Shown one piece after another: positions 18,783-64,000 of a stretch of DNA of 64,000 bases. Below the pieces are notes generated by a model. It ran no database searches, had not been told where the DNA came from, and saw only the letters and a program-made list of their open reading frames with translations. Position numbers and translations under genes: made by a program. How positions within the stretch are numbered: position 1 is the stretch's first letter; each line of letters starts with the position of its first letter. This DNA is from a virus: positions 32,001-96,000 of IMG/VR virus record IMGVR_UViG_3300008952_000006, one strand, 5' to 3'.

Positions 18783-18803
18783 GAGCGTAACTCCGCCGAC
18801 TGC

Positions 18804-18831
18804 GCAAAATCACCACATACTTAGGTATAAT
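18804..18831 (+). promoter_or_regulatory. putative promoter for the RNA leader/Ubl operon
   Basis: GCAAAAT-N13-GGTATAAT. Confidence 0.55.
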
Positions 18832-18894
18832 AGAATTGTATGGATCCCAAAAGATCGCGTCTATTCAGATGATCAAGTTCATAGTCACTCTGTA

Positions 18895-19269
18895 CCTCTG
18901 CTCCCTTGGTTGCCATGGCATAACCGACGAGAGCCAGCGTCACACGATACTTCCTGGTTGAAGAACTGATAAGAGGCCCTTAGGGGCGACCTGTACATCC
19001 TGCGCGTAGCCAGACCCATTCGTGGGTAAGATACGATGACTGTCGGGAAAAGACCGCTTTCGAGTATTCAACGTCAATGTGATTCCCATGATAGCGTTTT
19101 ACGCTCGGTATTTGATTTTGTTGTTTGACTAGGCTGGTCCGCCGAAGCAGGACCTTGTAATTGTTGCTCGTGTGCCGAATTAATTCGTCCGTGCACAGGC
19201 AGCATGTCAATAGCAAAAGCCTTACAAATAGGTATCCTCCCAGTGTAGTAGCTGAGCGAAGAGCAGAGG
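18895..19269 (+). ncRNA. candidate structured RNA or long 5' leader
   Basis: No credible ORF; ends pair (CCTCTGCTC 18895-18903 with GAGCAGAGG 19261-19269, extended by CTTGGTTGC/GTAGCTGAG); several internal hairpins. Confidence 0.5.
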
Positions 19270-19273
19270 ATTC

Positions 19274-19645
19274 ATGAAAGAATTTGAAATGGTGCCAGGG
19301 CAAGAAGAGTATTGGGCTCTTGTTTCCCAGTCACTAAAGAACCGTAAAAAAGTTAAAACAACCAGCTATGGTGGCTGGACTATTACTAGTTATGTTGGTT
19401 CTCGACCAACAACTGAGACTGGCACAAATATTACTCATATAGAGTATAGCGCTAGTGCCAAAACGGGTGACTTCGAAAGATCGCAGGAGCCCAATCTGTC
19501 CGATGACCCACGAACGATTCGTGTAGACTTTGATGATACATCTGTTGTTACGCTTTCCGCAAAGACAATGGAAGAACTAACAAACAGACTGAAAGAGATT
19601 TTCAATGGTTTTCATTGGGAACAGGAGAAAGAAAGACATGTCTAA
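19274..19645 (+). CDS. hypothetical protein, first gene of the Ubl operon
   Basis: GAGGA RBS; overlaps the Ubl start. Confidence 0.65.
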   Translation: MKEFEMVPGQEEYWALVSQSLKNRKKVKTTSYGGWTITSYVGSRPTTETGTNITHIEYSASAKTGDFERSQEPNLSDDPRTIRVDFDDTSVVTLSAKTMEELTNRLKEIFNGFHWEQEKERHV

Positions 19646-20204
19646 CTACTTTGAAGAACAATTAAACGAGGCTACCACCGCACGTGATAACTTTGTCGCA
19701 GCTATGGGCGCAGACTACAGCCGAAGCAACCTGGACCGGCTCCAGGCACTACAGTCACAGGTTGACGCCGCACAGGCGCAACTGCAATCTACAACCCCGT
19801 CCAATGGGTCTAACGGATCCAATGGGTCTAACGGGTCTAACGGTATCGCCGTTAACGTTCAGCCTGCAGATAGCAGCGACGAGAACGTCGAGATGTGTGT
19901 CGTAAGCTTCATCAGGCACGGCAAAACAGACCGCTGCCGTGAGGTGCGTGCAGACGCAACAATCGGTGATATTATCCACACCCTTAATCTTGAGGAGCGA
20001 GGGTCGTGGGATGTAAGCAAACTAACGTTCAAACGGCGCGTTGGCCCAGGGCAAACGGCTGATATCACTGATCCAGCAAACACCAAGTTGGGTCCTGGTA
20101 CACACGAAATCTGGGTTGGGGACAAAGTCTCTGGTGGGCGTCGGCCAAAGCATAGCTGGGGGTTTATCCTTGAGCACGTGCTTGTCAATCACTACGTTCA
20201 GTAG
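19638..20204 (+). CDS. ubiquitin-like protein: coiled coil + (SNG)5 linker + beta-grasp domain ending KVSGG + 21-aa extension
   Basis: VVSFIRHG...EVRADATIGDII...L.PG..EIWVGDKVSGG; lies directly before E2/JAB/E1 genes. Confidence 0.75.
   Translation: MSNYFEEQLNEATTARDNFVAAMGADYSRSNLDRLQALQSQVDAAQAQLQSTTPSNGSNGSNGSNGSNGIAVNVQPADSSDENVEMCVVSFIRHGKTDRCREVRADATIGDIIHTLNLEERGSWDVSKLTFKRRVGPGQTADITDPANTKLGPGTHEIWVGDKVSGGRRPKHSWGFILEHVLVNHYVQ
19800..19844 (+). repeat. 5 x 9-bp tandem repeat encoding (Ser-Asn-Gly)5
   Basis: TCYAAYGGN x5. Confidence 0.9.
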
Positions 20205-20226
20205 ACCAGACTTAAGACACGACCAT

Positions 20227-20265
20227 GGCGGGGGGCTCCTTACAGGGCCTCCCGCTATTTTTTTT
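20227..20265 (+). terminator. intrinsic terminator/attenuator between Ubl and E2
   Basis: GGCGGGGGGCTC-CTTACA-GGGCCTCCCGCT followed by A and T8. Confidence 0.75.
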
Positions 20266-20275
20266 GGAGGAAGAA

Positions 20276-21406
20276 ATGGCTGCAACCACTAACTGCTTTG
20301 TTCTAGATATTACAAAAAGCGAAGACCACATTGTTGAACAACTGCGCAGTGCGGTTGAGGCTGACTCAAAGAACGACACTGCGAGGATCCTAGAGCTTAA
20401 TGCTCGCATAAAGAAACTGGAGCCAATCTCTAAAATGAATGGCGTCAAAGTCGAAAAGCGGAGTGAAATATATGAGCGCATGCGTGCCCGTATGTCCGCA
20501 AAACATATAGAATACGAAAGAGCCCGAAACCGGGTTCGAACAGCTAGGGACAAGCACTGGGCAAGAATCACTAAGCAAGCTGAATGCGATGCCAGCATAG
20601 ACAGCCTGAAAACGGAAATATCCCGCATAAAACGAAGACTCGAGCATGCGGCAACTCTGTATGAAGGAGACGCCTTCGAAAGGCGAGCGTTGATGTTGAA
20701 ATTCGTTGCAGACCGCGTGGACACTAGCGTGCCAATTACGGTGCAAACCGTCAATGAAAACGAGCTAACAGTCAAATGGAAGACCAGCGACATCTATATA
20801 AAAGATGGTTTCGGTGGAACTCTCCCATTTAACTTTGGAAGCTTCCAGGTTCACATAACGTACAAAACCAGTTCCGAGCGGGGTAATCGTGTAGATGTAT
20901 ACTGTTACGACGCAGCTGATAACGATAAGAGGGCGGACTACTCACACCCGCACCTAAATGAACATGGGCATGCATGTCTCGGAAATCTAGCACCAATGCT
21001 TCTTAAGTTCCTAGGAGAGAAGGATATCGTCGGTGTTATAGAAAAGGTTACGGAGTTCCTTCAACACTACAATAGAGATAACCCGTATATAAAATTAGAG
21101 AACTGGTGCGAGAATAGGTGGGATAACGCCATTTGTGAGTCTGGTCGGCACATCCTAGCGGATTGCACCTGCCCAAGATGTGCTGGTTGTCGCCAAATTT
21201 TTGAAACCCCAGATATTGAAATAAGCGCCTGCGGGCACTGTCCTAGTTGCTGCATGGTCAGCCATATACACGTACCCACAATGACGGGTGTAAACGGTAC
21301 ACACTGCATCAATAGAGCAGAATACCGGCACGTTGAGTGCAACGAAACAAGCCCAGCGGGCTGTACGTATAAGCCAATTGGCGAGCCAACAAATGAAGGA
21401 GCATAG
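20276..21406 (+). CDS. prokaryotic E2/UBC-like conjugating enzyme with N-terminal coiled coil and C-terminal Cys/His-rich domain
   Basis: YSHPHLNEHGHACLGN (HPH...C active-site motif); FLQHYNRDNPY; GGAGG RBS. Confidence 0.75.
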   Translation: MAATTNCFVLDITKSEDHIVEQLRSAVEADSKNDTARILELNARIKKLEPISKMNGVKVEKRSEIYERMRARMSAKHIEYERARNRVRTARDKHWARITKQAECDASIDSLKTEISRIKRRLEHAATLYEGDAFERRALMLKFVADRVDTSVPITVQTVNENELTVKWKTSDIYIKDGFGGTLPFNFGSFQVHITYKTSSERGNRVDVYCYDAADNDKRADYSHPHLNEHGHACLGNLAPMLLKFLGEKDIVGVIEKVTEFLQHYNRDNPYIKLENWCENRWDNAICESGRHILADCTCPRCAGCRQIFETPDIEISACGHCPSCCMVSHIHVPTMTGVNGTHCINRAEYRHVECNETSPAGCTYKPIGEPTNEGA

Positions 21407-21407
21407 A

Positions 21408-22442
21408 ATGTCGAAAGTTCTAGAAAACCCAACAGTTCGTTTTACATACAAAGCGTATCAACAGATGCGCGACTTAACAAGAGACTGCCCCACTGAAGTC
21501 AGCGCGATGGGAATCATCGCAACGGACCAGCAACGAGAAGACTTGGGTATAGATGAAAGATTCTATATCCTAAGCTTTGTGGTCCCAGACCAAAGTTGTA
21601 CAGGAGTCTCGACCGTAATGAATACAGACTCTCTGAGTGAGATAGCCTTTGACCTTAGAGACAAGGGCATCCTGTCGGAGCAAGTCTGTGTCTGGTGGCA
21701 CAGCCACGTAAATATGGGAACAGGACACAGCGGCACAGACGAAAAACAGATTGAAGACTTCGACTTTGATGAGGTGTGTATATCACTCATCACCAATAAA
21801 GACGGTGATTTAAACTGTAGGGTCGATCTGTATAAGCCGATCAGATACTCCTTTGAGGAATGCGACTGGTGTGTTGATCCTGTAGATGTCTTAGAGAAGG
21901 ACTGGGCGAAAAAGCAGATCGAAGAGCATGTCTCGGTCCCAGCGCCTACCCGCTTAAATGTTGTTAAGGCACCAGTGGTAAAGAAAACCTACACCCCCTA
22001 CCAGTATGGCGGCTGGAACATGGGCGGTAACTATAGCTGGAACGGTGACTGGGAAGAGGAAGCCGAGGCTGAGAAGGATAAGTCGAAGGCGTCTTCCTAT
22101 GATGAGTACTGCAACTACGATAAAGACGTACCTGAAGTAAACTTCCCCGAGGAGCTTAAGCTGCTGGAGGAGCTACATGAAGAACACGTGGTAACCACAC
22201 AGGAGGCCATGGAGTACTACGCAAAATGGTACGCCAACGAGATAGGTACAGAGGAGCTGGAGGATGAGCTGCAAACTCTTTTCTATGAGAAAGAAATGGG
22301 CGGCGGCCAATCAGAGAAGGACGCAGATGAAGATGACGAGGACGCAGCTGGAAGAAAAATTCTAGAGTCCTTTGTCGTGCATGACATCAACGATGAAGTG
22401 GAAACGCCAAAAGTCTGTTCTGTTGTAGGAGGTTCAGAATGA
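21408..22442 (+). CDS. JAB/JAMM (MPN+) metallopeptidase with acidic C-terminal extension
   Basis: EVSAMG plus HSH-x7-SGTD (WWHSHVNMGTGHSGTD). Confidence 0.88.
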   Translation: MSKVLENPTVRFTYKAYQQMRDLTRDCPTEVSAMGIIATDQQREDLGIDERFYILSFVVPDQSCTGVSTVMNTDSLSEIAFDLRDKGILSEQVCVWWHSHVNMGTGHSGTDEKQIEDFDFDEVCISLITNKDGDLNCRVDLYKPIRYSFEECDWCVDPVDVLEKDWAKKQIEEHVSVPAPTRLNVVKAPVVKKTYTPYQYGGWNMGGNYSWNGDWEEEAEAEKDKSKASSYDEYCNYDKDVPEVNFPEELKLLEELHEEHVVTTQEAMEYYAKWYANEIGTEELEDELQTLFYEKEMGGGQSEKDADEDDEDAAGRKILESFVVHDINDEVETPKVCSVVGGSE

Positions 22443-23101
22443 TAGATACAACCCGACAGTCGGGGATTATCCCAGACAATAAGGTTCAAGAAATATCTGT
22501 CGCCATTGTCGGTGCGGGGTCCATTGGATCCCATACCGCCGAGGTGCTTTGTAAGATGGGTATTCGTAAATTACGCATCTTCGACTTCGACGACGTCGAA
22601 GGACACAACGTGGCCAACCAAGGCTATTACGTACCCGAAATTGGGTATAAGAAGTGTGAGGCTCTACGACTCCGACTTGGTTCGGGAACAGGGGTAGAAA
22701 TCATAGCCGAGAACCGGAGGTATGACGCCGGGGAAAAATTTCAAGAAGAATACGTTATCTCGGCAGTAGATAACATGTCTTCTCGAGCGGACATCTGGTC
22801 CGGTTTCCTAGCAAGCTCTGGTTGTCGCTACTTTCTAGACGCTCGTATGGGGGCAAGAAATGGTTCTGTGTTCTTCGTTGATAAGCGAAGCGTAGAATCA
22901 ATCTCCCGCTACGACCGGTCCTTGTTTCCTGACGAAGAAGCAGTTCAGTTACCGTGTACAGAGAAGAGCACCATCTTCTGTGCATATGGCCTCTCAGGTC
23001 TTATTGGTGCGCTCGTTGCCGAAAGTATTATCGGTGATAATGAGTTAAATTTCTCTGTGGATGTAGATTTCTCCAACATCCACATGTTTCGTAATACGTA
23101 A
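22439..23101 (+). CDS. ThiF/MoeB-family E1-like activating enzyme
   Basis: IVGAGSIGS, DFDDVEGHNVANQ, K, AVDNMSSR, DARMG; candidate catalytic Cys in QLPCT. Confidence 0.9.
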   Translation: MIDTTRQSGIIPDNKVQEISVAIVGAGSIGSHTAEVLCKMGIRKLRIFDFDDVEGHNVANQGYYVPEIGYKKCEALRLRLGSGTGVEIIAENRRYDAGEKFQEEYVISAVDNMSSRADIWSGFLASSGCRYFLDARMGARNGSVFFVDKRSVESISRYDRSLFPDEEAVQLPCTEKSTIFCAYGLSGLIGALVAESIIGDNELNFSVDVDFSNIHMFRNT

Positions 23102-23137: not shown

Positions 23138-23896
23138 ATGGCTACCAATAACCGCGATAAAAATCGTTTCAGCTTCGGGCAAATGGGAGATCAAATGGTC
23201 TCACTGATTGACGAAGAGACGGCACCTGCCGTCATCCGTATTGAATATAATAACGTCATCTGTGAGATGGCGAAAGTCACAAGTGGTGGTCGCACGTACT
23301 ATACGGGCGTCCCAAAGACAAAGGATGGGCACAAGTGTAAATTTGGTTTTACGCTTGATTGTTCTGGGTACTTCGAAGGAAGTGCCGCAATGAACTACAT
23401 CGCAATGGGCGGGTGGCGTCGGGGGACTAAAAAGCCCACCCACGCAGAGAAGGCTAAGCGACGAACAGAGTTCGTGATGCAATTCCTCTCAAACTGCATC
23501 CACCACCGCAGCCCAGACGTCTCCTCTGAGCACGGCTTAGAGGGTCTTAAGAAGCTTGTGTCAAGCAGAACAGGGATGGAAGTGGTCACGGGGGAAATGA
23601 CCCCCGAAGACCTACGAGGATTGGCTTTGATGGCCGTCCCCTTCTATCTCGTAGAAATCTGTAAAGGGCGGGGGTTGAAGATGGTGCTGGACATACCCAA
23701 GTATGTCTCCCGTCTAGTTCAACCGCAGTACGCCAAATGTGAGCTTGGTGAGTGGGACCACGAGAGTGGTCAGGTAGCCATTACCAGTGCGCTCTCCGCA
23801 GCGCAGGCGCAGCTTATGCAGGAAGCAGGGTACCGGTTCCGAAAGGTTCAATACTCTGTTAAAGCGGCAGCTGAGCCTAAAAAGCAAGAAGAGTAG
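23138..23896 (+). CDS. hypothetical protein, last gene of the Ubl operon
   Basis: GGGAG RBS; followed by a terminator. Confidence 0.7.
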   Translation: MATNNRDKNRFSFGQMGDQMVSLIDEETAPAVIRIEYNNVICEMAKVTSGGRTYYTGVPKTKDGHKCKFGFTLDCSGYFEGSAAMNYIAMGGWRRGTKKPTHAEKAKRRTEFVMQFLSNCIHHRSPDVSSEHGLEGLKKLVSSRTGMEVVTGEMTPEDLRGLALMAVPFYLVEICKGRGLKMVLDIPKYVSRLVQPQYAKCELGEWDHESGQVAITSALSAAQAQLMQEAGYRFRKVQYSVKAAAEPKKQEE

Positions 23897-23962: not shown

Positions 23963-24075
23963 GACAACAAAGAGGTTGTCAAATGACAACATTGTTATTG
24001 TCGGGCAAAACGCTGTACCAACGGCTACTTACATAGAATATGTGGTATAAGGCAACTGACAACAACGTATCTGTC
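23963..24075. repeat. three 18-bp GACA-N10-TGTC palindromic sites
   Basis: 23963 GACAACAAAGAGGTTGTC; 23985 GACAACATTGTTATTGTC; 24058 GACAACAACGTATCTGTC. Confidence 0.85.
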
Positions 24076-24108
24076 AGGCATAGACACTTTTCACCCAAAG
24101 GAGGGCCT

Positions 24109-25194
24109 GTGAAAGTCATTGAAATTTTAAACATTAGAGCCACTCCGCACGTAAAAGTGCGCGCTTACCCAACAACGAGTACTAACCGGTGGTCCAGAAA
24201 CGACTTTACTGATCCAGAAGATGATGAAGTCTGGGATGAAGATGACCTTACCCCTGTTGAAAGAGGTCACGTGTATCTATGGAAAGAAGACGATGATGGT
24301 TGGATACATATCTTTATGCCGTTTAAAATAATGGATGAAGAAACAGGTATACTGCTCAGAGGCTTCCAGACATTCCGCAGTACAGCTCCTTTTGTAACTG
24401 GCAGAAATCATGCCTTGGATAAGCTAACTAAAAATCCAAAATCTTGTCTCCAGAACTTTAAATTTACTAAAGAGTATTTTAATACATTTAAAAAGAAAGT
24501 TAAGGCTATAGACGGGGTAGTAGAGAAAGATGAAATTGACGTAGAAGCTCTTCTTTCCCATATCCAGGAAACAAGAGAGACTGTAAAAGCGCTTAATAGC
24601 ACAGTAGCCTCTTTAAGAACCACCTACTGTGTAGCTTCCAGTGAAGTAAAACTAGACACAAGAGAAAAACTAGAAGAGGCATTAAAACAATTCTCTATGC
24701 TAAGAGACTCTTTCAGAGAATCCGGTAAAGAGAGAGTTGTGTTAGCAAAAATTCTAAGTCGTTTAAAAGAAGAGTCTGGAAGGAAAACAGCTTACATTGA
24801 AGCGAGCGAGTGGTTTAGTGTGTTAACAAAAGAACTAAACCTCGTGCGCAGTGCAGACTTCGACAGACTAGAAAGAGAGGCGGTTCATAAACACAGGGTA
24901 GACATTGGGGACCTAGATATGACAGCTAGACCACCCACACTAATGGCTCTTGGAGTTGAATTAGATAGGTTAAAACAGTACTTCCCGTGTCTTATAAAAC
25001 TTAAAGTAGTCAACACTCAAAACACCGAAGCAGTCTACCTGGACTTACCAGGGATAAAAATATCCCTCTTAAGCGATGGTGCTGTAAAAGTAGAAGGTGA
25101 CCCAGCAGTACTTAAACCATTCGTAGAAGGCTCATCCGCAGTTCAGGCTGCGGGGAGGCGTAGACGTACGATCTACACAGAAGATGAAAACTAG
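24109..25194 (+). CDS. hypothetical protein bracketed by palindromic repeats
   Basis: AAGGAGG RBS before GTG; GGTATAAG at 24044; visibly A/T-richer codons than neighbours. Confidence 0.7.
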   Translation: MKVIEILNIRATPHVKVRAYPTTSTNRWSRNDFTDPEDDEVWDEDDLTPVERGHVYLWKEDDDGWIHIFMPFKIMDEETGILLRGFQTFRSTAPFVTGRNHALDKLTKNPKSCLQNFKFTKEYFNTFKKKVKAIDGVVEKDEIDVEALLSHIQETRETVKALNSTVASLRTTYCVASSEVKLDTREKLEEALKQFSMLRDSFRESGKERVVLAKILSRLKEESGRKTAYIEASEWFSVLTKELNLVRSADFDRLEREAVHKHRVDIGDLDMTARPPTLMALGVELDRLKQYFPCLIKLKVVNTQNTEAVYLDLPGIKISLLSDGAVKVEGDPAVLKPFVEGSSAVQAAGRRRRTIYTEDEN

Positions 25195-26388: not shown

Positions 26389-27945
26389 TTGAAAAGTGTC
26401 GAAGAACTCGACCTTTTGATACGTGCAGCCTACCCGGTCATCTTTGTGGTTTCCTACGAAGAAGGCCGGGTAGAGTCTGCGCTGTCAGAAATAGTCGAAC
26501 GCCGTAACGCTAAGGGATCGAATGCCAAACTACATGTTTGGTCGATAACTGAGGGTTGTCGGTGTGGTGATACTGTTCTACAAGATCTCGATGGACCTTT
26601 GGACGTCCTGGAATATATCCAGGGATACAAAGAATCCGGGGTGTTCTTGCTAAGAGACTTCGCAAATTTTCTTAACACAGGCCCAGAGTACCTCATACAG
26701 CGCAAGCTGAGAGATGCTATTTCGGGGCTAGGGCCTGGGGTCAACATAGTAATCGTTGACTCTGAGCTAGAGATACCGCCAAGACTAGAGAAGCTCCTGT
26801 CAGTGATTGACTTCGATCTTCCCAGCCTAGACGAGCTTAGTGTAATCGCTGAGCAACTAATGTCAGACTGTAGCGCCACGGCCTCCCTGAAGGAAGAAGC
26901 GCGGTCTACCATGGTATCGGTCGGAGCCAATACCGCGCTAGGGCTTACCCTGGCCGAGGCTGAGAATGTCTTCGCTAAATCACTAGCTTATAACAGGACG
27001 CTGGACCCACACATTATCATTGATGAGAAGAAGAATATTATCCGAAAATCGGGTGTGCTTCAATTCTATGACGTGGACAGGGACATGAGTTCTGTAGGCG
27101 GTCTAGGAAACCTAAAACGATGGCTTAGCCAAAGGAGTAGCTCCTTTAGTGATGAAGCCAAAGAATACGGCCTACCTAATCCTCGAGGGGTGCTAATTGT
27201 GGGCATCCCAGGGACAGGGAAGAGCCTTGTTTCGAAATGTATTGGGAATGACTGGAACATGCCAGTCCTCCGCATGGATGTGGGGGCCTTGTTTGGCTCC
27301 CTGGTTGGACAATCAGAATCCAATATGCGGAAAGCCTTAAAGACAGCGGAAGCCTTGGCACCCTGCGTGCTATGGATTGACGAGCTTGAGAAAAGCCTAG
27401 GCAGCTCTTCGGGCGTCTCCGATAGTGGGACAACCGCCAGAGTGTTTGGTTCCTTCCTAAGCTGGATGCAAGAAAAGACATCCCCGGTATTCGTCGTTGC
27501 AACAGCAAACGATGTATCGGCACTTCCGCCTGAAATGTTGCGCAAAGGAAGATTCGATGAATTATTCTTCGTAGACCTCCCTAACGCAGTAGACCGCCTC
27601 GAAATCATCGCTATCCATTTGGATAGGCTTGGTAGAAGCTGTACCCGTGACCCAAAAGAGCTATCGTCTCTGGTGGAAGTCACAGAGGGTTTCTCTGGGG
27701 CGGAGTTAGAACAAATCATTATAGATGGGATGTATGCGGCGTTTCCAGAAAACAGGGAACCCACAATAGAAGACTATTTCCAAGCAGCTAGCAACACGGT
27801 TCCCTTGTCATCCACGATGGATGGTAAGATCAGTGACCTGAGAAAGTGGGCGGCTGGAAAGGCTATCCAGGCAAATGAGTCTGGTGACACAGCCAACACA
27901 ATGATCCCAGCTAAAGTTAAACCACGACGGAGAATCATGAATTGA
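26389..27945 (+). CDS. Ycf46-like AAA+ ATPase
   Basis: IRAAYP...YEE.R N-domain; VGGLGNLK.WL; GIPGTGKS; LWIDELEK; PPEMLRKGRFDE. Confidence 0.9.
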   Translation: MKSVEELDLLIRAAYPVIFVVSYEEGRVESALSEIVERRNAKGSNAKLHVWSITEGCRCGDTVLQDLDGPLDVLEYIQGYKESGVFLLRDFANFLNTGPEYLIQRKLRDAISGLGPGVNIVIVDSELEIPPRLEKLLSVIDFDLPSLDELSVIAEQLMSDCSATASLKEEARSTMVSVGANTALGLTLAEAENVFAKSLAYNRTLDPHIIIDEKKNIIRKSGVLQFYDVDRDMSSVGGLGNLKRWLSQRSSSFSDEAKEYGLPNPRGVLIVGIPGTGKSLVSKCIGNDWNMPVLRMDVGALFGSLVGQSESNMRKALKTAEALAPCVLWIDELEKSLGSSSGVSDSGTTARVFGSFLSWMQEKTSPVFVVATANDVSALPPEMLRKGRFDELFFVDLPNAVDRLEIIAIHLDRLGRSCTRDPKELSSLVEVTEGFSGAELEQIIIDGMYAAFPENREPTIEDYFQAASNTVPLSSTMDGKISDLRKWAAGKAIQANESGDTANTMIPAKVKPRRRIMN

Positions 27946-28805
27946 TTAAGTATCGCACTGGGGTATGCCAGTTAGACGAAGCGTTAGCAGGGGGCTTCCC
28001 CTGCGGCGTTTCTGAGATTGTTGGGGGTGACGCCTGCGGCAAAACCTCACTATGCCTTAGTGTGATGCGAGAAGCTTCTCTTGAAGATCTCCCGACAGTC
28101 CTTATCTACACCGAAGGCTTACCCGATAAAGTATATTTTAGTAAGGCGGGTCCAAGCGACTGTGTAGTCGTGACTCCGGGGTTTGGGGAGGCAGCTATTG
28201 AGGCTGGCTTCTCAGCCCTGGTTCACGGGGCGAAGGTTGTCATAATTGACAGCATTACAAACCTGGGGACCTTTACAGAAATGGATTATCCAATTGGGGC
28301 CCGAGAGCCCTATGGTCAGAAGAAGCTCGTTTTCCACGGCCTGAAGGTTCTCCGAGAGGAGGCCATAAAAAGAGAGGCATTAGTCCTCGTGACAAGTCAG
28401 CTAAGAACCCAAATCGGGGCATTAGTCCAAGTACCAGCATCCTCGTTCGAAGGTATTATCAATAATATTTGTAGCACCCGGATAAAAACACGCCGTGCCC
28501 AAGTGAGAACAGAGTACGGTGAGCTAGCCTATGCGAAAATAGAATTCTCTATCTTTCGATCCTTGTCTACCCCTCCGGGGAGCAAGGCATATGGTTTCAT
28601 TTTCAACCAACAGGGCTACAATAAGAACTTTGAATTACTAAGAGCATTGATAGCTAACGGGGTTTTCCGAAAAGCGGGAGCCTACTTTACAGACCCAGAA
28701 GGAAACAATCTTGGGCCTGGGTATCAGCAAGCTTTAGAACAAATAGGAAACAACTTTAACCACTACTGGGAGCTTTATTATGGAAGTCAAAGTAACAATC
28801 AATGA
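27942..28805 (+). CDS. RecA/UvsX-like recombinase-family ATPase
   Basis: TG...LDEALAGGFP, GGDACGKT, VIIDS, SQLR, KAGAYF. Confidence 0.8.
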   Translation: MIKYRTGVCQLDEALAGGFPCGVSEIVGGDACGKTSLCLSVMREASLEDLPTVLIYTEGLPDKVYFSKAGPSDCVVVTPGFGEAAIEAGFSALVHGAKVVIIDSITNLGTFTEMDYPIGAREPYGQKKLVFHGLKVLREEAIKREALVLVTSQLRTQIGALVQVPASSFEGIINNICSTRIKTRRAQVRTEYGELAYAKIEFSIFRSLSTPPGSKAYGFIFNQQGYNKNFELLRALIANGVFRKAGAYFTDPEGNNLGPGYQQALEQIGNNFNHYWELYYGSQSNNQ

Positions 28806-28965
28806 GGACGGGTCAACCGAAATAGAAGTTGACGGCGTCAAAGGCCAGGGATGTACCAAGTACACCGATGCTGTAATCAAGGCACTCGGTGGTACGGTAA
28901 CCTCTGATAAAAAGAAGCCGGAATTTTACGAGAAGGCAGATGAAAACGTAAAGGCGGGGTCATGA
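28780..28965 (+). CDS. DUF2997 family protein
   Basis: V.I..DG..EIEVDGVKG.GC...T...ALG......KPEFY. Confidence 0.8.
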   Translation: MEVKVTINEDGSTEIEVDGVKGQGCTKYTDAVIKALGGTVTSDKKKPEFYEKADENVKAGS

Positions 28966-29979: not shown

Positions 29980-30263
29980 GTAAACACGAGGAAGCGATGA
30001 TGGATGGTGATGCGCGTTTAATAGCAGCGGCCCCCGATATGCTCGCCGCCCTGAAGGCGCTAGACACTGTATGCATGGATGGTTTGGTTTCCGTATGCCC
30101 ACGTACAGGGCTTAGAAAGGAGCTTCACCTCCGAGAGATAATAGATGCAGCTATCAATAAAGCGGAAGGTGAGTGCGAACATGGTCATCCCCCTCAGAAT
30201 TGTATTCTGTGTGAGGATGAACAAGAAAGGGAGGTGAGTAATGTCAGCGTTAATAACGTGTGA
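29976..30263 (+). CDS. hypothetical phage protein
   Basis: ARLIAAAPDML.AL motif; GGAGGT RBS. Confidence 0.65.
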   Translation: MSKHEEAMMDGDARLIAAAPDMLAALKALDTVCMDGLVSVCPRTGLRKELHLREIIDAAINKAEGECEHGHPPQNCILCEDEQEREVSNVSVNNV

Positions 30264-30654
30264 AACGTGTATGAAAGACCAAAATGCCGTAGTAACCGCC
30301 CTGAAAAAATTGGGCATACCAGAAGAGTTAATCTTAATAGCCGAACCTGGGGAGCTTTTACAGCTCTCCGGGTATAGTCGCCAAAGCGCCCAAGTAGAGA
30401 TCTTAATAAAGAAGTCTTACTACGGTGGCTACGGTGACGTTGGGTTTGCTAAAGACAATAAGGGCAACTACAAAATATACGTAGATGACCTAGACGATGG
30501 TGGAGCCCTTGGGGCAAAAGTCGGGGGTAAATTCTCGTCTGGTGTCAGTCAATGGTACGCTGCCTGTGTGGCGCAGAAGGCCCTCAAAAAGCAGGGGCTC
30601 GTGACTAAAGTTAAGAAAAAGGGTAATAAGATTGTAGTTACTGCATCGGGGTAG
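30241..30654 (+). CDS. DUF1257 family protein
   Basis: MS......T..KD...V.AL..LG; L.GY; D.GF; Q.YA; context with Ycf46-AAA and DUF2997. Confidence 0.7.
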   Translation: MSALITCETCMKDQNAVVTALKKLGIPEELILIAEPGELLQLSGYSRQSAQVEILIKKSYYGGYGDVGFAKDNKGNYKIYVDDLDDGGALGAKVGGKFSSGVSQWYAACVAQKALKKQGLVTKVKKKGNKIVVTASG

Positions 30655-31518: not shown

Positions 31519-32514
31519 CTATTGCTGCATCTTGCGAGCTATGGAGATAAGCTTATCCGAAACACTGCCCGGATAGAAATCCGGCTTGCCGCTTAGTCTG
31601 CGTATCTCACGAGCCGTTCTTCTTGGGACAGATATAGCGCCCTCGTTTCGCATAATGTCGTAAGCGCCTTTCCCGTACATTTTCTCTATAGGCTTTCGCC
31701 ATTTTTCAGGAAACTTGGTTGGTGGAAGGAAGAAGCCCCCAAGAGGGTGGCCGCCCTTCTTAGGCTGAAGATTCCTTAGGTCTTGCTTCATTAGCTTTCT
31801 TAACGCCCTCTCACCTAGCCTCCCAAGAAGAGGTGTGTCAGCCAGACCTCTGGTAAGCTTACGATGCGCATATTGCATAGGGATTCCCGACGCCAGACCT
31901 GTAGCTCCACGCGACGAGAAGGTAAGACCGAGCGTGTCCATCAATGGGCTCTGTGGACTCTGTCCCTTGGCCGCCAAATACGAACGATGTGACGCGGTTA
32001 GTCCGCCTCCCAAAGCCGCTCCGCTGACGCGTCCCGCCGCGCCCGACAGATAGGTCATGTACGCGTAGCCTAAGTCTCTTCGCGCTTTCCTGTAGGCCCT
32101 CGGGCTAATCCTTCGAAATTTACGTAGAGCTTTTAAGCCATGGTAAGAAGCCAGAAACTCCTCTATAAGCCTCGGGGCCTCACCGGCAGCCTGCAGCCCT
32201 GCGGACTGTAGAGCAACCGCCCCCGGTGCCCTTGATTTCCCCACCCCTTTAGCGGCCCCATAAGCTCGGAGCGTGCTCGCCCCGGTCCCATACATTGGGC
32301 CCTTACCATACAAGTGCATCCTAAGTTTTCGAACTCCGGGCGAGGAGCCCATCAACGTCTTAGCGTGACCGTATTCGTGAGCCAGGATAGAAGCAGGCGA
32401 CTGAGAAGCCACAGCCCTGGTGGTCCTCTCAAGTGAGTGCCCCAGGGCTTGAATTAGTTTTGACTTAGCCGCTTCTTTAGATAGCTCGCCATGGGAGCGA
32501 ATCGGCAATGGCAT
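31519..32514 (-). CDS. basic G/A-rich protein with zincin metallopeptidase motif (possibly virion-internal)
   Basis: ILAHEYGHA...LIEEFLASYHG; N-terminal SKEAA motif. Confidence 0.65.
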   Translation of the reverse strand: MPLPIRSHGELSKEAAKSKLIQALGHSLERTTRAVASQSPASILAHEYGHAKTLMGSSPGVRKLRMHLYGKGPMYGTGASTLRAYGAAKGVGKSRAPGAVALQSAGLQAAGEAPRLIEEFLASYHGLKALRKFRRISPRAYRKARRDLGYAYMTYLSGAAGRVSGAALGGGLTASHRSYLAAKGQSPQSPLMDTLGLTFSSRGATGLASGIPMQYAHRKLTRGLADTPLLGRLGERALRKLMKQDLRNLQPKKGGHPLGGFFLPPTKFPEKWRKPIEKMYGKGAYDIMRNEGAISVPRRTAREIRRLSGKPDFYPGSVSDKLISIARKMQQ

Positions 32515-61339: not shown

Positions 61340-62754
61340 TATTTCTTCACCTTTACTGTAGATGACCCAACCTTGTTCCAGGCGGGGGGCTGCGCAGGCG
61401 TTATTTGAATCATCCCGGGACTCGTCGGTCCCCAAGCAGTCAGTACCTGAAGCTGTGTTTTCATGTAGAGATCTAGGTCCGAAAATCTAACGACGCCCGT
61501 GTCAGCCGAATCACCAAGATCAATAGTTGTGGCATTAATATCCACGTGCGGAGACTTAATCTCAACGCTGTCTAGGACGTCCATTACGACTTTCTTGCAC
61601 GCCATTTCGAATTCATTACTCTTGAGAAACTCCATGTAGGCGCTTCCGTCCGCATCCTTTGCTCCCTCACCCCAGTCAAGTCGGGCTGAGCCGTGGACTG
61701 CCGCATAGAAGTCTTTCTCTATTTCGTGACGGATGCTGCCCTTTGTAAAAACAAAGTTGTCCCCATCACGGTTTAGCTGAAACGCATAGGTTACTTTGTC
61801 TTTATTATTACCGTCATCGTGATTATAAATAGTAATACTTATAACGCCCTTCTCCTCTGCGGTAATGCCCTCCTCTGGCGGACTGCCCTTGCCCTGCTTC
61901 AGATCCGCATTTGCAAATATATGCTCTGCGTCCACCTCAGTGTCTAAAGTTTCGTCCGTAAGTCTGCCTACACGCATCTCTACCGTATACTTACCTTTGG
62001 ATACATCTTCCTGCGTTAGGTCCTTAATATTATAACGCACCAATACGGGAGTTTCTTCAGCAGTTTTGAGCGCGTTCTTCTGATTCTCGTCTAAAAAATA
62101 ATTTGAGCTTGGTACGCTCCCAGTGCCTCCGGAGGGGGTTTCTCCATATGCCAGGACGGCATGACCCCATTCAATCTCTCCTACAGGGCTGTATGCCTGA
62201 TATTTTTGGAAGTAGTCCCTAACAACATTTTCGACAGGGATGTAAATTCTCTGCGCCAAACCTGTGGAGCCAATTTGCACTATCCCGCCCCTTCGGACCA
62301 CAATTTGGTTTTCGTCTGCTGTGCCGAGGTAGATGTCCCCGGGCTCTAGCGGGTGACGAAATCCGCGCCAACTGGGGTCTGTGTCCGTTTCATCAATGGT
62401 GGCGTATCTTTCCAGGCTTCCCGAACTAGAGCCCTCCAACCGCTCAGCAAGCGCCTCAGATTCAGTGGGCGCTACCGTGGTGGGGTTCAAAACAAAGCCT
62501 AAAATAAAGTGTGTCCCGTCCCCACAGGTACACACATAACAAGTAGAATCAATCTCAGGCATGAAGTGTACGCCGCCGCCATGATCTCGGTGGCAGTAAG
62601 GGGTTGCAAACGGGATAGGGCCCAATGGTCTAAGGGAGAAAACGGTTTCAAGATCCACAGTCCAATTCTCAAAGTTAACCGCAGTGACTCTAGCCAACGT
62701 TATATTTGCAGGCCCATTAGCATCGGAAACAGTCTTTGCGTACGGATCAGGCAT
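61339..62754 (-). CDS. baseplate hub/spike protein (gp5/Gp138-like N-terminal OB fold)
   Basis: ARVTAVN...TVD...G.HFMPE..S.C.V......ILGF; C-terminal beta repeats and I.LG...VVR. Confidence 0.6.
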   Translation of the reverse strand: MPDPYAKTVSDANGPANITLARVTAVNFENWTVDLETVFSLRPLGPIPFATPYCHRDHGGGVHFMPEIDSTCYVCTCGDGTHFILGFVLNPTTVAPTESEALAERLEGSSSGSLERYATIDETDTDPSWRGFRHPLEPGDIYLGTADENQIVVRRGGIVQIGSTGLAQRIYIPVENVVRDYFQKYQAYSPVGEIEWGHAVLAYGETPSGGTGSVPSSNYFLDENQKNALKTAEETPVLVRYNIKDLTQEDVSKGKYTVEMRVGRLTDETLDTEVDAEHIFANADLKQGKGSPPEEGITAEEKGVISITIYNHDDGNNKDKVTYAFQLNRDGDNFVFTKGSIRHEIEKDFYAAVHGSARLDWGEGAKDADGSAYMEFLKSNEFEMACKKVVMDVLDSVEIKSPHVDINATTIDLGDSADTGVVRFSDLDLYMKTQLQVLTAWGPTSPGMIQITPAQPPAWNKVGSSTVKVKK

Positions 62755-64000
62755 TAATACGGCCCCTTTGTAAGCTTATCCTTCTTGCCAAATTCCGCAG
62801 AGAACGCAAGTCCGGGCGCTGGGTGCAGCCCGTGGATATCAGACTCCCAGCCCTCGTTTGCCGCACGGATGAATGTTTCTTTTAACTTCCTGTACTGAAG
62901 TCTGGCAAGCCAATCTGTTGTTTGGTCAAGCGGTAGTGTTTCTACACCGCGCAACATCGGCTCAGTCTTTATTGGATTTTTCATAGCCTTGTTCAAAGAG
63001 TTCGCATGTGACAAGGAGATGTAGTCCCCACGGATAAACTTGCTGGAATCGCCGGGGTCTGTGACCTTTCCAAGGTTAGTTAAAGCTTTCGTGACCACCT
63101 CAACATTTCTCTTCTTAATGCCCTCCTTCTCGTAGACTTTATGTATCTCGTCTGCGAGGTATCTCTGGACTGTTTCGATATTTGTTTTCTCTAAAAGCTC
63201 GTGCGGGTTTATGATCCCACCAGTCAGCGACTGACCGCGCCTAACCTTTGCGCCGCTCTTAACGGAGACCTCTAGGTTGCCCGGTACGTAGACTTCCTGA
63301 TTACCAATAGTAATGTCATGTCCACCGATTGGGCTTACCTTTACAGAAGATATGGTGCCAGTTGCAGGCGAAAGAATAGCGGAATTAGCAAGCTTTTCTG
63401 GCATTTTTAATAATTGTGAAACACGATGAATCCCGCTAACTACGGAGCTTCCGCCTCCCGCAACGCCACCGGTATGGAATGCCTTCATGGATAGCTGAGT
63501 GCCCCGCTCACCGATAGAGGTCCCAGCAATAAGACCTATATTGACCCCCTTAGCAATTGGGTTGCCATTGTCCGCAATACCGTAACACTTGGAACACAGG
63601 CCCTTGGAAAGCTCACATTTTAGAGGCGACCGGACGAGGACCTTGTCAACTTTTGATGACCTAAGTCTAGAGAGCATATTAGGGGTAATAAGTGACCCAC
63701 TCGGTATTTTTAATCCAGGTGCGGACACGGGCTTCGCAAGGTACCGGTCTACAATGTCTGAGTCAGCAGCCGCCAACGCAATGCCTCTTGTTGTTTTGCA
63801 GTCATCCCCAGCTATAACGTAAGATATAGTAGTATTAGCAATTTGCTTGTTCAAAGCTCCCGGAAGCTGGACGGACTGCACCTTTTTTATCAGGCCTGCT
63901 CGAGCACCAGAAGTGGTAACCCAGTAGTCCGACGATTGGAGTCCCTCAGCATATGACCTAGATACGGGGACCGGTATTACCCGACCTTTTGCGTTCTCAA
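62754..64000 (-). CDS. rpoC: multisubunit RNA polymerase beta' subunit, C-terminal part (5' end beyond window)
   Basis: Frame stays open to the window end: SYAEGL...YW....GAR.G (bridge helix), RSPLKC..LCSKCYG, SIGERGTQLSMKAFHTGG (trigger loop). Confidence 0.9.
   Translation of the reverse strand, partial: ENAKGRVIPVPVSRSYAEGLQSSDYWVTTSGARAGLIKKVQSVQLPGALNKQIANTTISYVIAGDDCKTTRGIALAAADSDIVDRYLAKPVSAPGLKIPSGSLITPNMLSRLRSSKVDKVLVRSPLKCELSKGLCSKCYGIADNGNPIAKGVNIGLIAGTSIGERGTQLSMKAFHTGGVAGGGSSVVSGIHRVSQLLKMPEKLANSAILSPATGTISSVKVSPIGGHDITIGNQEVYVPGNLEVSVKSGAKVRRGQSLTGGIINPHELLEKTNIETVQRYLADEIHKVYEKEGIKKRNVEVVTKALTNLGKVTDPGDSSKFIRGDYISLSHANSLNKAMKNPIKTEPMLRGVETLPLDQTTDWLARLQYRKLKETFIRAANEGWESDIHGLHPAPGLAFSAEFGKKDKLTKGPY

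Follow-up and report, generated by a model that had tools for sequence, protein, structure and literature searches.

A predicted ubiquitin-like conjugation cassette in an uncultured marine myophage and the mainly viral family to which it belongs

Conjugation of ubiquitin-like proteins (Ubls) in bacteria, by the Bil, Bub and CBASS Cap2 systems, has so far been characterized as a weapon of the host only. What would a phage do with such chemistry of its own? The question is raised by a 64,000-nucleotide stretch of viral DNA (the window; positions 32,001 to 96,000 of IMG/VR record IMGVR_UViG_3300008952_000006), in which a sequence-only reading had recognized four consecutive, tightly spaced + strand genes for a Ubl, an E2, a JAB protease and an E1, and had proposed that they tag host or phage proteins, counter host Ubl-based defense or exclude competing phages. 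The four open reading frames (ORFs) are present at the positions and in the order that it gave:

19638-20204, + strand: Ubl (pro-Ubl) gene, 188 aa
20133-20138, + strand: Gly-Gly codons, predicted mature C-terminus of the Ubl once trimmed
20225-20268, + strand: intrinsic-terminator-like hairpin and T-run with a 14-bp stem, the best such site in 11 kb
20276-21406, + strand: E2-like gene, 376 aa
21408-22442, + strand: JAB/JAMM gene, 344 aa
22439-23101, + strand: E1 gene, 220 aa, its start overlapping the JAB stop as ATGA

We conclude that this cassette represents a new, mainly viral family of prokaryotic Ubl conjugation, which works like Bil and stands outside Bil, Bub, PRTRC and CBASS. Judging from the sequences, it very probably conjugates its Ubl to proteins. 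If it does, the chances are evenly balanced that the targets are host proteins, of the defense or housekeeping machinery, which would be disabled or redirected during takeover. The full reading that we favor, in which a self-contained pathway encoded by the virus conjugates its Ubl to host proteins early in infection, we place slightly short of even.

The DNA is that of a phage. The source record of the window is a 173,034-bp virus with direct terminal repeats (DTR) and a completeness rating of 100%, and the same genome encodes a terminase, a head protease, a tail sheath and a ribonucleotide reductase (RNR). Marine metagenome runs cover the cassette region, GC level is flat across the window, and in related phages of 150-180 kb the cassette recurs between the same neighbors. 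Host DNA misassembled with phage, which would have undone the sequence-only reading, is ruled out by the complete DTR record, the flat GC and the synteny kept in related phage contigs. Codon use is ordinary for the genome in the three enzyme genes and atypical in the Ubl gene alone, as expected for a repeat-rich or highly expressed gene. Against the closest relatives, the ratio of nonsynonymous to synonymous substitution (dN/dS) in the cassette genes is 0.08-0.14 wherever dS is measurable (0.09-0.14 for Ubl, 0.08-0.09 for E1), indicating purifying selection. The genome is thus that of a complete 173-kb marine myophage, uncultured, and the cassette is phage-borne; the nearest terminases of cultured phages are only ~28% identical, and no host was assigned from them. 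The cassette sits in the + strand arm with the RNR, ParB-like, AAA and RecA-like genes, apart from the virion genes. This is the early/replication arm, in this genome as in other lineages, and the cassettes of small phages and of crAss-like phages adjoin replication genes too.

The Ubl consists of a predicted helical N-terminus (~1-55), a Ser/Asn/Gly-rich linker, a β-grasp domain (83-167) ending in GG and a 21-aa C-terminal tail. An AlphaFold2 (AF2) model of the domain has β-grasp topology with a mean confidence (pLDDT) of 91.7, and the Foldseek matches of this model are ubiquitin-like domains; the two agree that the protein is the β-grasp Ubl on which the earlier proposal depended. Pfam ThiS is matched by 10 of 47 Ubl homologues. 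The Ubl had been described as ending in KVSGG, which it does not: Gly166-Gly167 precede 21 further residues. This tail is genuine and lineage-specific. A frameshift or assembly error is ruled out by contigs from two studies (one possibly the source sample) that match the window in the tail region without an indel; in one metagenome run a loose contig end reads GG-Ser-Arg-stop, as does the Ubl of the closest relative, L097, which marks it as a co-occurring relative. Across homologues the Gly end is retained, the first Gly of the pair being at least 90% conserved, whereas the residues behind GG or GA vary in number, mostly 0-5, with longer tails in some that reach over 20. A variable tail behind a constant Gly end is the pattern of a precursor trimmed by JAB, and a Ubl with 21 residues past its GG would need such trimming, presumably by the JAB of the cassette. 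In four cassettes (L058, L123, L124 and L136) the Ubl contains two tandem β-grasp-like repeats, an arrangement also found in ISG15 and type I BilA.

The E2-like protein is the most divergent of the enzymes and its assignment draws on several lines. It has a charged helical N-terminus (19-126, probably a coiled coil), a UBC domain (~131-283) with H224-P-H and C234, and a Cys/His-rich C-terminal region whose Cys and His residues are kept in close relatives. The UBC domain was modeled with AF2 at a pLDDT of 90.7. In Foldseek the top 50 rows are all E2-containing entries, none at an E-value below 0.001. Structural alignment with VIA-align places E2-fold entries in the top 26 rows, the best being UbcH7 (Z 7.0, rmsd 4.3, 116 residues aligned). 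The E2 family profile aligns the HP..C motif and the downstream helix with the Ubc4 active site HPN..C, at an E-value of 0.03. C234 is invariant in all 67 homologues, where mean column identity is 15%, and the conserved His-Pro lies ten residues upstream of the Cys, with no conserved downstream His. These lines are middling singly and concordant jointly, and together they support a predicted UBC fold with the catalytic Cys in Ubc4 register; a protein lacking that fold was the other outcome that would have told against the sequence-only reading. E2 is generally less conserved than any other gene of the region (53% identical in the closest relative vs 95% for E1), varies in length from ~290 to 810 aa with highly variable flanks, and in atlas searches resembles unannotated viral clusters. 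Extra E2-domain genes lie near the cassette in phages L061/L063 and L090, the catalytic motif being intact in some only. Fast divergence, variable flanks and duplication suggest that E2 is likely the target selector, by analogy with the role proposed for BilB, and are what one would expect of a module that sets specificity in an arms race.

The JAB protein is a metalloprotease domain (1-172) followed by a long acidic tail, and its JAMM residues E30, H98, H100, S108 and D111 are invariant in 39 of 39 homologues. Its best profile matches among solved structures are a Caldiarchaeum Rpn11-like protein (2.5e-9) and yeast Rpn11 (3e-8), and PADLOC JAB models give weak matches to 22 of the 39 family members. 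We predict from these features that it acts as Ubl maturase and deconjugase. The E1 is a single ThiF/MoeB-like adenylation domain (Pfam ThiF, 1.8e-17) of 220 aa in which no IAD, CYS or UFD domain was found. Its GxGxxG motif and crossover-loop C173 are invariant in 67 of 67 homologues; C173 aligns with MoeB C187, and the Zn-binding CxxC pairs of MoeB are absent. The best solved-structure match is UBA5 (3e-18), barely above TcdA, Uba1 and ThiF. A complex prediction of an E1 dimer with E2 scored 0.01 and bears neither way. In an E1 tree, the window's E1 belongs to a clade of 12 members and PRTRC E1s form a separate long-branch clade; the tree was built by a quick method with Bil/Bub sequences absent and its deep branches and root unresolved, which puts claims of origin and monophyly outside its reach. 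One locus, L005, has a JAB-E1 pair whose E1 is without the conserved Cys, and no family E2 or Ubl was detected beside the pair.

Several observations argue for conjugation as the shared activity of these proteins. The motifs quoted in the sequence-only reading are all present, and conservation among homologues puts them beyond chance: catalytic residues are invariant though the proteins are often just 15-35% identical. The four genes stay linked in 36 of 40 viral contigs despite four gene orders. In the cultured phage PhiXhv-12, the Ubl ends in GG and an E1 and E2 accompany it where no family JAB was detected. The spacing of the genes had been called tight; this does not apply between Ubl and E2, a gap that contains the strong terminator-like hairpin. 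Of the 56 loci where Ubl precedes E2, 31 have a terminator-like site behind the Ubl gene, compared with 15 of 110 other co-directional gaps (14%) and 51 of 1120 shuffles (5%). A site at this place suggests a stoichiometric tag and catalytic enzymes, the Ubl being made in excess over the enzymes via a conserved terminator.

A mechanism consistent with these features would begin with the terminator stopping most transcripts behind the Ubl gene and so supplying Ubl in excess. JAB would then cut the tail after Gly167, as BilC does in the analogous system. E1, which like ThiF, UBA5 or Atg7 is probably a homodimer, would adenylate the Ubl C-terminus and form a thioester on C173, from which the Ubl would be handed to C234 of E2. 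In a cassette with no E3 gene, choice of target and ligation of the Ubl, probably onto lysines, would fall to the variable domains flanking the E2 core; JAB could reverse the modification.

How does the cassette relate to known systems? It has the components of the broad class of prokaryotic Ubl conjugation, namely a β-grasp Ubl with a C-terminal Gly, an E1 with adenylation motifs and a nucleophile, a UBC-fold E2 with a nucleophile and an intact JAMM motif. Its earlier placement beside Bil, Bub and PRTRC holds at that level and no further, as the family is separate, mainly viral and fails membership of each. Bil (BilABCD, types I and II; Hor et al., 2024; Chambers et al., 2024), whose type II is placed in class 6C by Chambers et al. 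(10.1101/2023.09.26.559546), likewise has four unfused genes in the order Ubl-E2-JAB-E1, a Cys-based E1 and E2, no E3, an E2 that likely picks the target and a JAB-type BilC that trims pro-Ubl (10.1101/2023.09.26.559546). However, BilD is a multi-domain IAD-AAD-CYS protein with a four-Cys Zn site, whereas the 220-aa phage E1 is a single domain with no insertion and no CxxC; the His of BilB lies downstream of the Cys (10.1101/2023.09.26.559546), in contrast to the classical upstream His-Pro of the phage E2; and Bil is a chromosomal defense system, unlike this mainly phage-borne family. The structural alignment of E2 ranks canonical E2s first, with BilB possibly among families not listed, and the absence of BilB, BilC, Cap3 and BubC among the PDB matches listed for E2 and JAB excludes nothing.

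PRTRC (TIGR03734-03742; by description, class 6d of Iyer et al., 2006) shares a small stand-alone Ubl, a JAB, a ThiF-sized E1, a Cys-E2 and an association with mobile elements, and in this phage a ParB-like gene lies near the cassette. Yet scores fall far below the NCBIfam cut-offs (57.7 vs 144.75 bits for E1, 42 vs 279 for ParB), the phage E2 keeps the classical His that class 6d E2s are without (PMC1779556), the JAB domain begins at residue 1 with no JAB-N, and there is no helical fifth gene. Bub (class 6e/DUF6527; Ye et al., 2024) is also a bacterial operon of Ubl, E2, E1 and JAB, but one of Tyr/Ser oxyesters, fusions (Ubl-E2, JAB-E1 or E2-E1) and a DUF6527 protease, whereas the phage enzymes are unfused with invariant Cys and no cassette-neighbor protein matches DUF6527. 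Type II CBASS resembles the cassette in the ThiF-like homodimer-type E1 domain, E2 domain and JAB of Cap2/Cap3, but in Cap2 the E2 and E1 are fused and act on a CD-NTase, while the phage has separate E1 and E2, its own Ubl and no adjacent CD-NTase; Cap2 models match the phage E1 only in the shared ThiF region (14-80). The lambdoid tail-assembly proteins TAPI/TAPK (class 5 of Iyer et al., 2006) are the sole phage Ubl and JAB pair that we found described, and differ in having no E1 or E2 and in belonging to a tail operon rather than an early/replication arm. The best solved-structure sequence matches of JAB, E2 and E1 are to Caldiarchaeum and eukaryotic systems (Rpn11, Ubc4, UBA5-UFM1), matches that are not phylogeny, and the phage system differs in its ThiS-like Ubl sequence and in the lack of a RING E3, an E1 UFD and a proteasome. 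ThiS/ThiF and MoaD/MoeB sulfur relays have linked sulfur donor or acceptor enzymes and no E2, the opposite of the phage genome on both counts.

When IMG/VR was scanned by way of the JAB, 40 distinct contigs were recovered; 36 hold all four genes, and 27 of these have the window's order, which the sequence-only reading suggested looking for in phage genomes. Metagenome contigs gave 171 further matches, and one-per-species prokaryote genomes (GTDB, n=185,579) gave 6, of which 1 is near-identical to an IMG/VR phage, 2 are short or phage-like and 3 are loci of the candidate phyla radiation (CPR). The viral-to-cellular ratio is rough, since the GTDB genomes were scanned with a single exact word of 8 residues and the viral contigs with a slightly less strict one of 7. 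The three CPR loci (L045-L047), which lie in housekeeping surroundings, have E2-JAB-E1 and no detected Ubl; their E2 is long and hydrophobic at its N-terminus. Among 401 sampled genomes of the CPR phylum a JAB profile search matched 2, one of them the seed, and among 401 Bacteroidota it likewise matched 2, again counting the seed; the new CPR match, L194, is an intact cassette with all four genes amid housekeeping genes. On a Bacteroidota chromosome (L193:8593-12150), E1 and E2 are frameshifted, Ubl and JAB are intact and a RadC-like gene is adjacent; this broken cassette looks like a decayed mobile-element remnant. The family is mainly viral, and cellular members are rare. A distant JAB query found no match in PLSDB plasmids or INPHARED.

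Among cultured phages, distant relatives were found in Xanthomonas phages PhiXhv-12/15/16 and Flavobacterium phage Fpv1. The 227-kb jumbo phage PhiXhv-12 (L178:1808-5684) encodes a Ubl ending exactly in GG, a coiled-coil/E2/Cys-rich protein and an E1, whose annotations read only hypothetical protein or thiamine biosynthesis protein, and no JAB of the window's family was found in its genome. Fpv1 and the crAss-like phage cr85_1 have JAB and E1, with weak candidates for E2 and Ubl. An opposite-strand ORF apparently interrupts the Fpv1 JAB gene (L177:3184-3933), leaving JAB-like pieces to either side; it may be an intron or mobile insert.

If the cassette conjugates proteins, which ones? The same chemistry could serve the phage's own replication or transcription proteins through a SUMO-like tag, perhaps clustering them via the helical N-terminus and low-complexity linker of the Ubl, which we consider unlikely without dismissing it. 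The early-arm site beside replication genes in unrelated phage groups would suit such a tag, as would the Ycf46-like AAA+ gene 3 kb downstream in the close family; the retention of JAB in 14 loci where the Ubl has no tail implies reversible tagging, and Bil and Bub include Ubls whose N-termini are coiled coils or rich in N/G (10.1101/2024.11.21.623966). However, no phage gene accompanies the cassette across lineages: there is no conserved fifth gene, the largest flanking family occurs in 13 of 53 loci and the AAA gene is adjacent in only 7 of 53, and the neighboring replication genes diverge more slowly than E2. Exclusion of competing phages, with the Ubl attached to virion proteins of co-infecting phages in superinfection exclusion or inter-phage warfare, is improbable. 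Components and gene order are those of Bil, which tags the tail fiber (PMC13434031), several foreign targets would fit the variable and duplicated E2s, and the decayed Bacteroidota copy is in keeping with this role, but the E1 architecture is unlike BilD, no tyrosine integrase was found in the whole genome, and a lytic phage must spare its own virion proteins.

Conjugation to protein may itself be the wrong premise. A sulfur relay (a ThiS/ThiF or Urm1-like thiocarboxylate used in host or phage modification), or attachment of the Ubl to something other than protein, for instance lipid or nucleic acid, would accord with the ThiS-like sequence of the Ubl, the ThiF/MoeB size of the E1 and the hydrophobic N-terminal segment of the CPR E2, and is nevertheless quite improbable. 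Nearly every cassette includes an E2 with an invariant Cys, whereas sulfur-carrier pathways are without E2 (10.1101/2023.09.26.559546). The reported lack of thiamine, molybdopterin or sulfur-transfer genes nearby extends to the whole genome, in which no ThiG, MoaE, cysteine desulfurase, rhodanese or tRNA-thiolase domain and no tRNA or tmRNA gene was found, although host enzymes could still serve. Dedicated counter-defense against host Bil or CBASS Cap2/Cap3, with JAB stripping Ubl or CD-NTase conjugates or the Ubl acting as decoy, is more remote still. It would explain an intact JAMM protease weakly similar to CBASS JAB models, but an E1 and E2 with invariant Cys would be superfluous, and PhiXhv-12 retains Ubl, E1 and E2 with no detectable JAB; as JAB alone would suffice, this is the least supported of the three roles in the sequence-only reading. 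A pathway directed at host proteins, which we favor, has points against it as well. Intact CPR copies in housekeeping regions mean that the family is not solely a viral weapon, the loci compared are not independent samples, and E2 is divergent, its Z of 7.0 falling below the tool's mark of 8 and its best sequence E-value being 0.03. In addition, its fast divergence is partly a coiled-coil effect and could equally follow fast-changing phage targets.

A mainly viral family would move protein conjugation to the phage side, as a new chemistry of host takeover or counter-defense, and would offer a function for those genes of crAss-like and jumbo phages that bear the annotation 'thiamine biosynthesis ThiF'. 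No account of a complete phage-encoded E1/E2/JAB/Ubl cassette was found in the literature, jumbo-phage reviews and crAss papers included, with most subscription journals outside the search. A 220-aa E1 with a separate Cys-E2 ranks among the simplest complete cascades, and cultured relatives and small genes make the system directly testable. A wider and doubtful proposal is that reversible Ubl modification with interchangeable E2 selectors is turned against the cell by phages of many unrelated lineages (170-190 kb myophages, 40-kb phages, crAss-like phages and the 227-kb Xanthomonas phage), their E2 and JAB being nearer to archaeal/eukaryotic Ubc4 and Rpn11 than the Bil, Bub and CBASS counterparts are, which would make phages a reservoir of canonical ubiquitin machinery.

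The surroundings of the cassette contain further conserved elements. Upstream lies an orphan gene that is not a core part of the cassette:

19274-19645, + strand: orphan gene, 123 aa, overlapping the Ubl start

Its product has no family match that we could find; the gene is always upstream within the close phage family (24-67% identity) and absent from distant cassettes. The non-coding segment before it (18800-19275) is conserved at 88% over 300 nt in L097 and in shorter blocks in L051, L054 and L098, with no Rfam match and a folding z-score of 0.04 for the whole region. Behind E1, two orphan genes (23138-23896 and 24040-25194) are 30-77% conserved in the close family; neither has a family or fold match, and an atlas search with the former was also empty. 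Genes for a Ycf46-like AAA+ ATPase, DUF2997 and DUF1257 (26389-27945, 28780-28965 and 30241-30654) are kept downstream in the close family only, the ATPase being a possible unfoldase partner of tagged proteins. In the virion arm, a 2091-aa minus-strand ORF occupies positions 62754-64000 of the window and beyond (94754-101029 of the genome), and many proteins of this arm carry a K-x-A leader motif.

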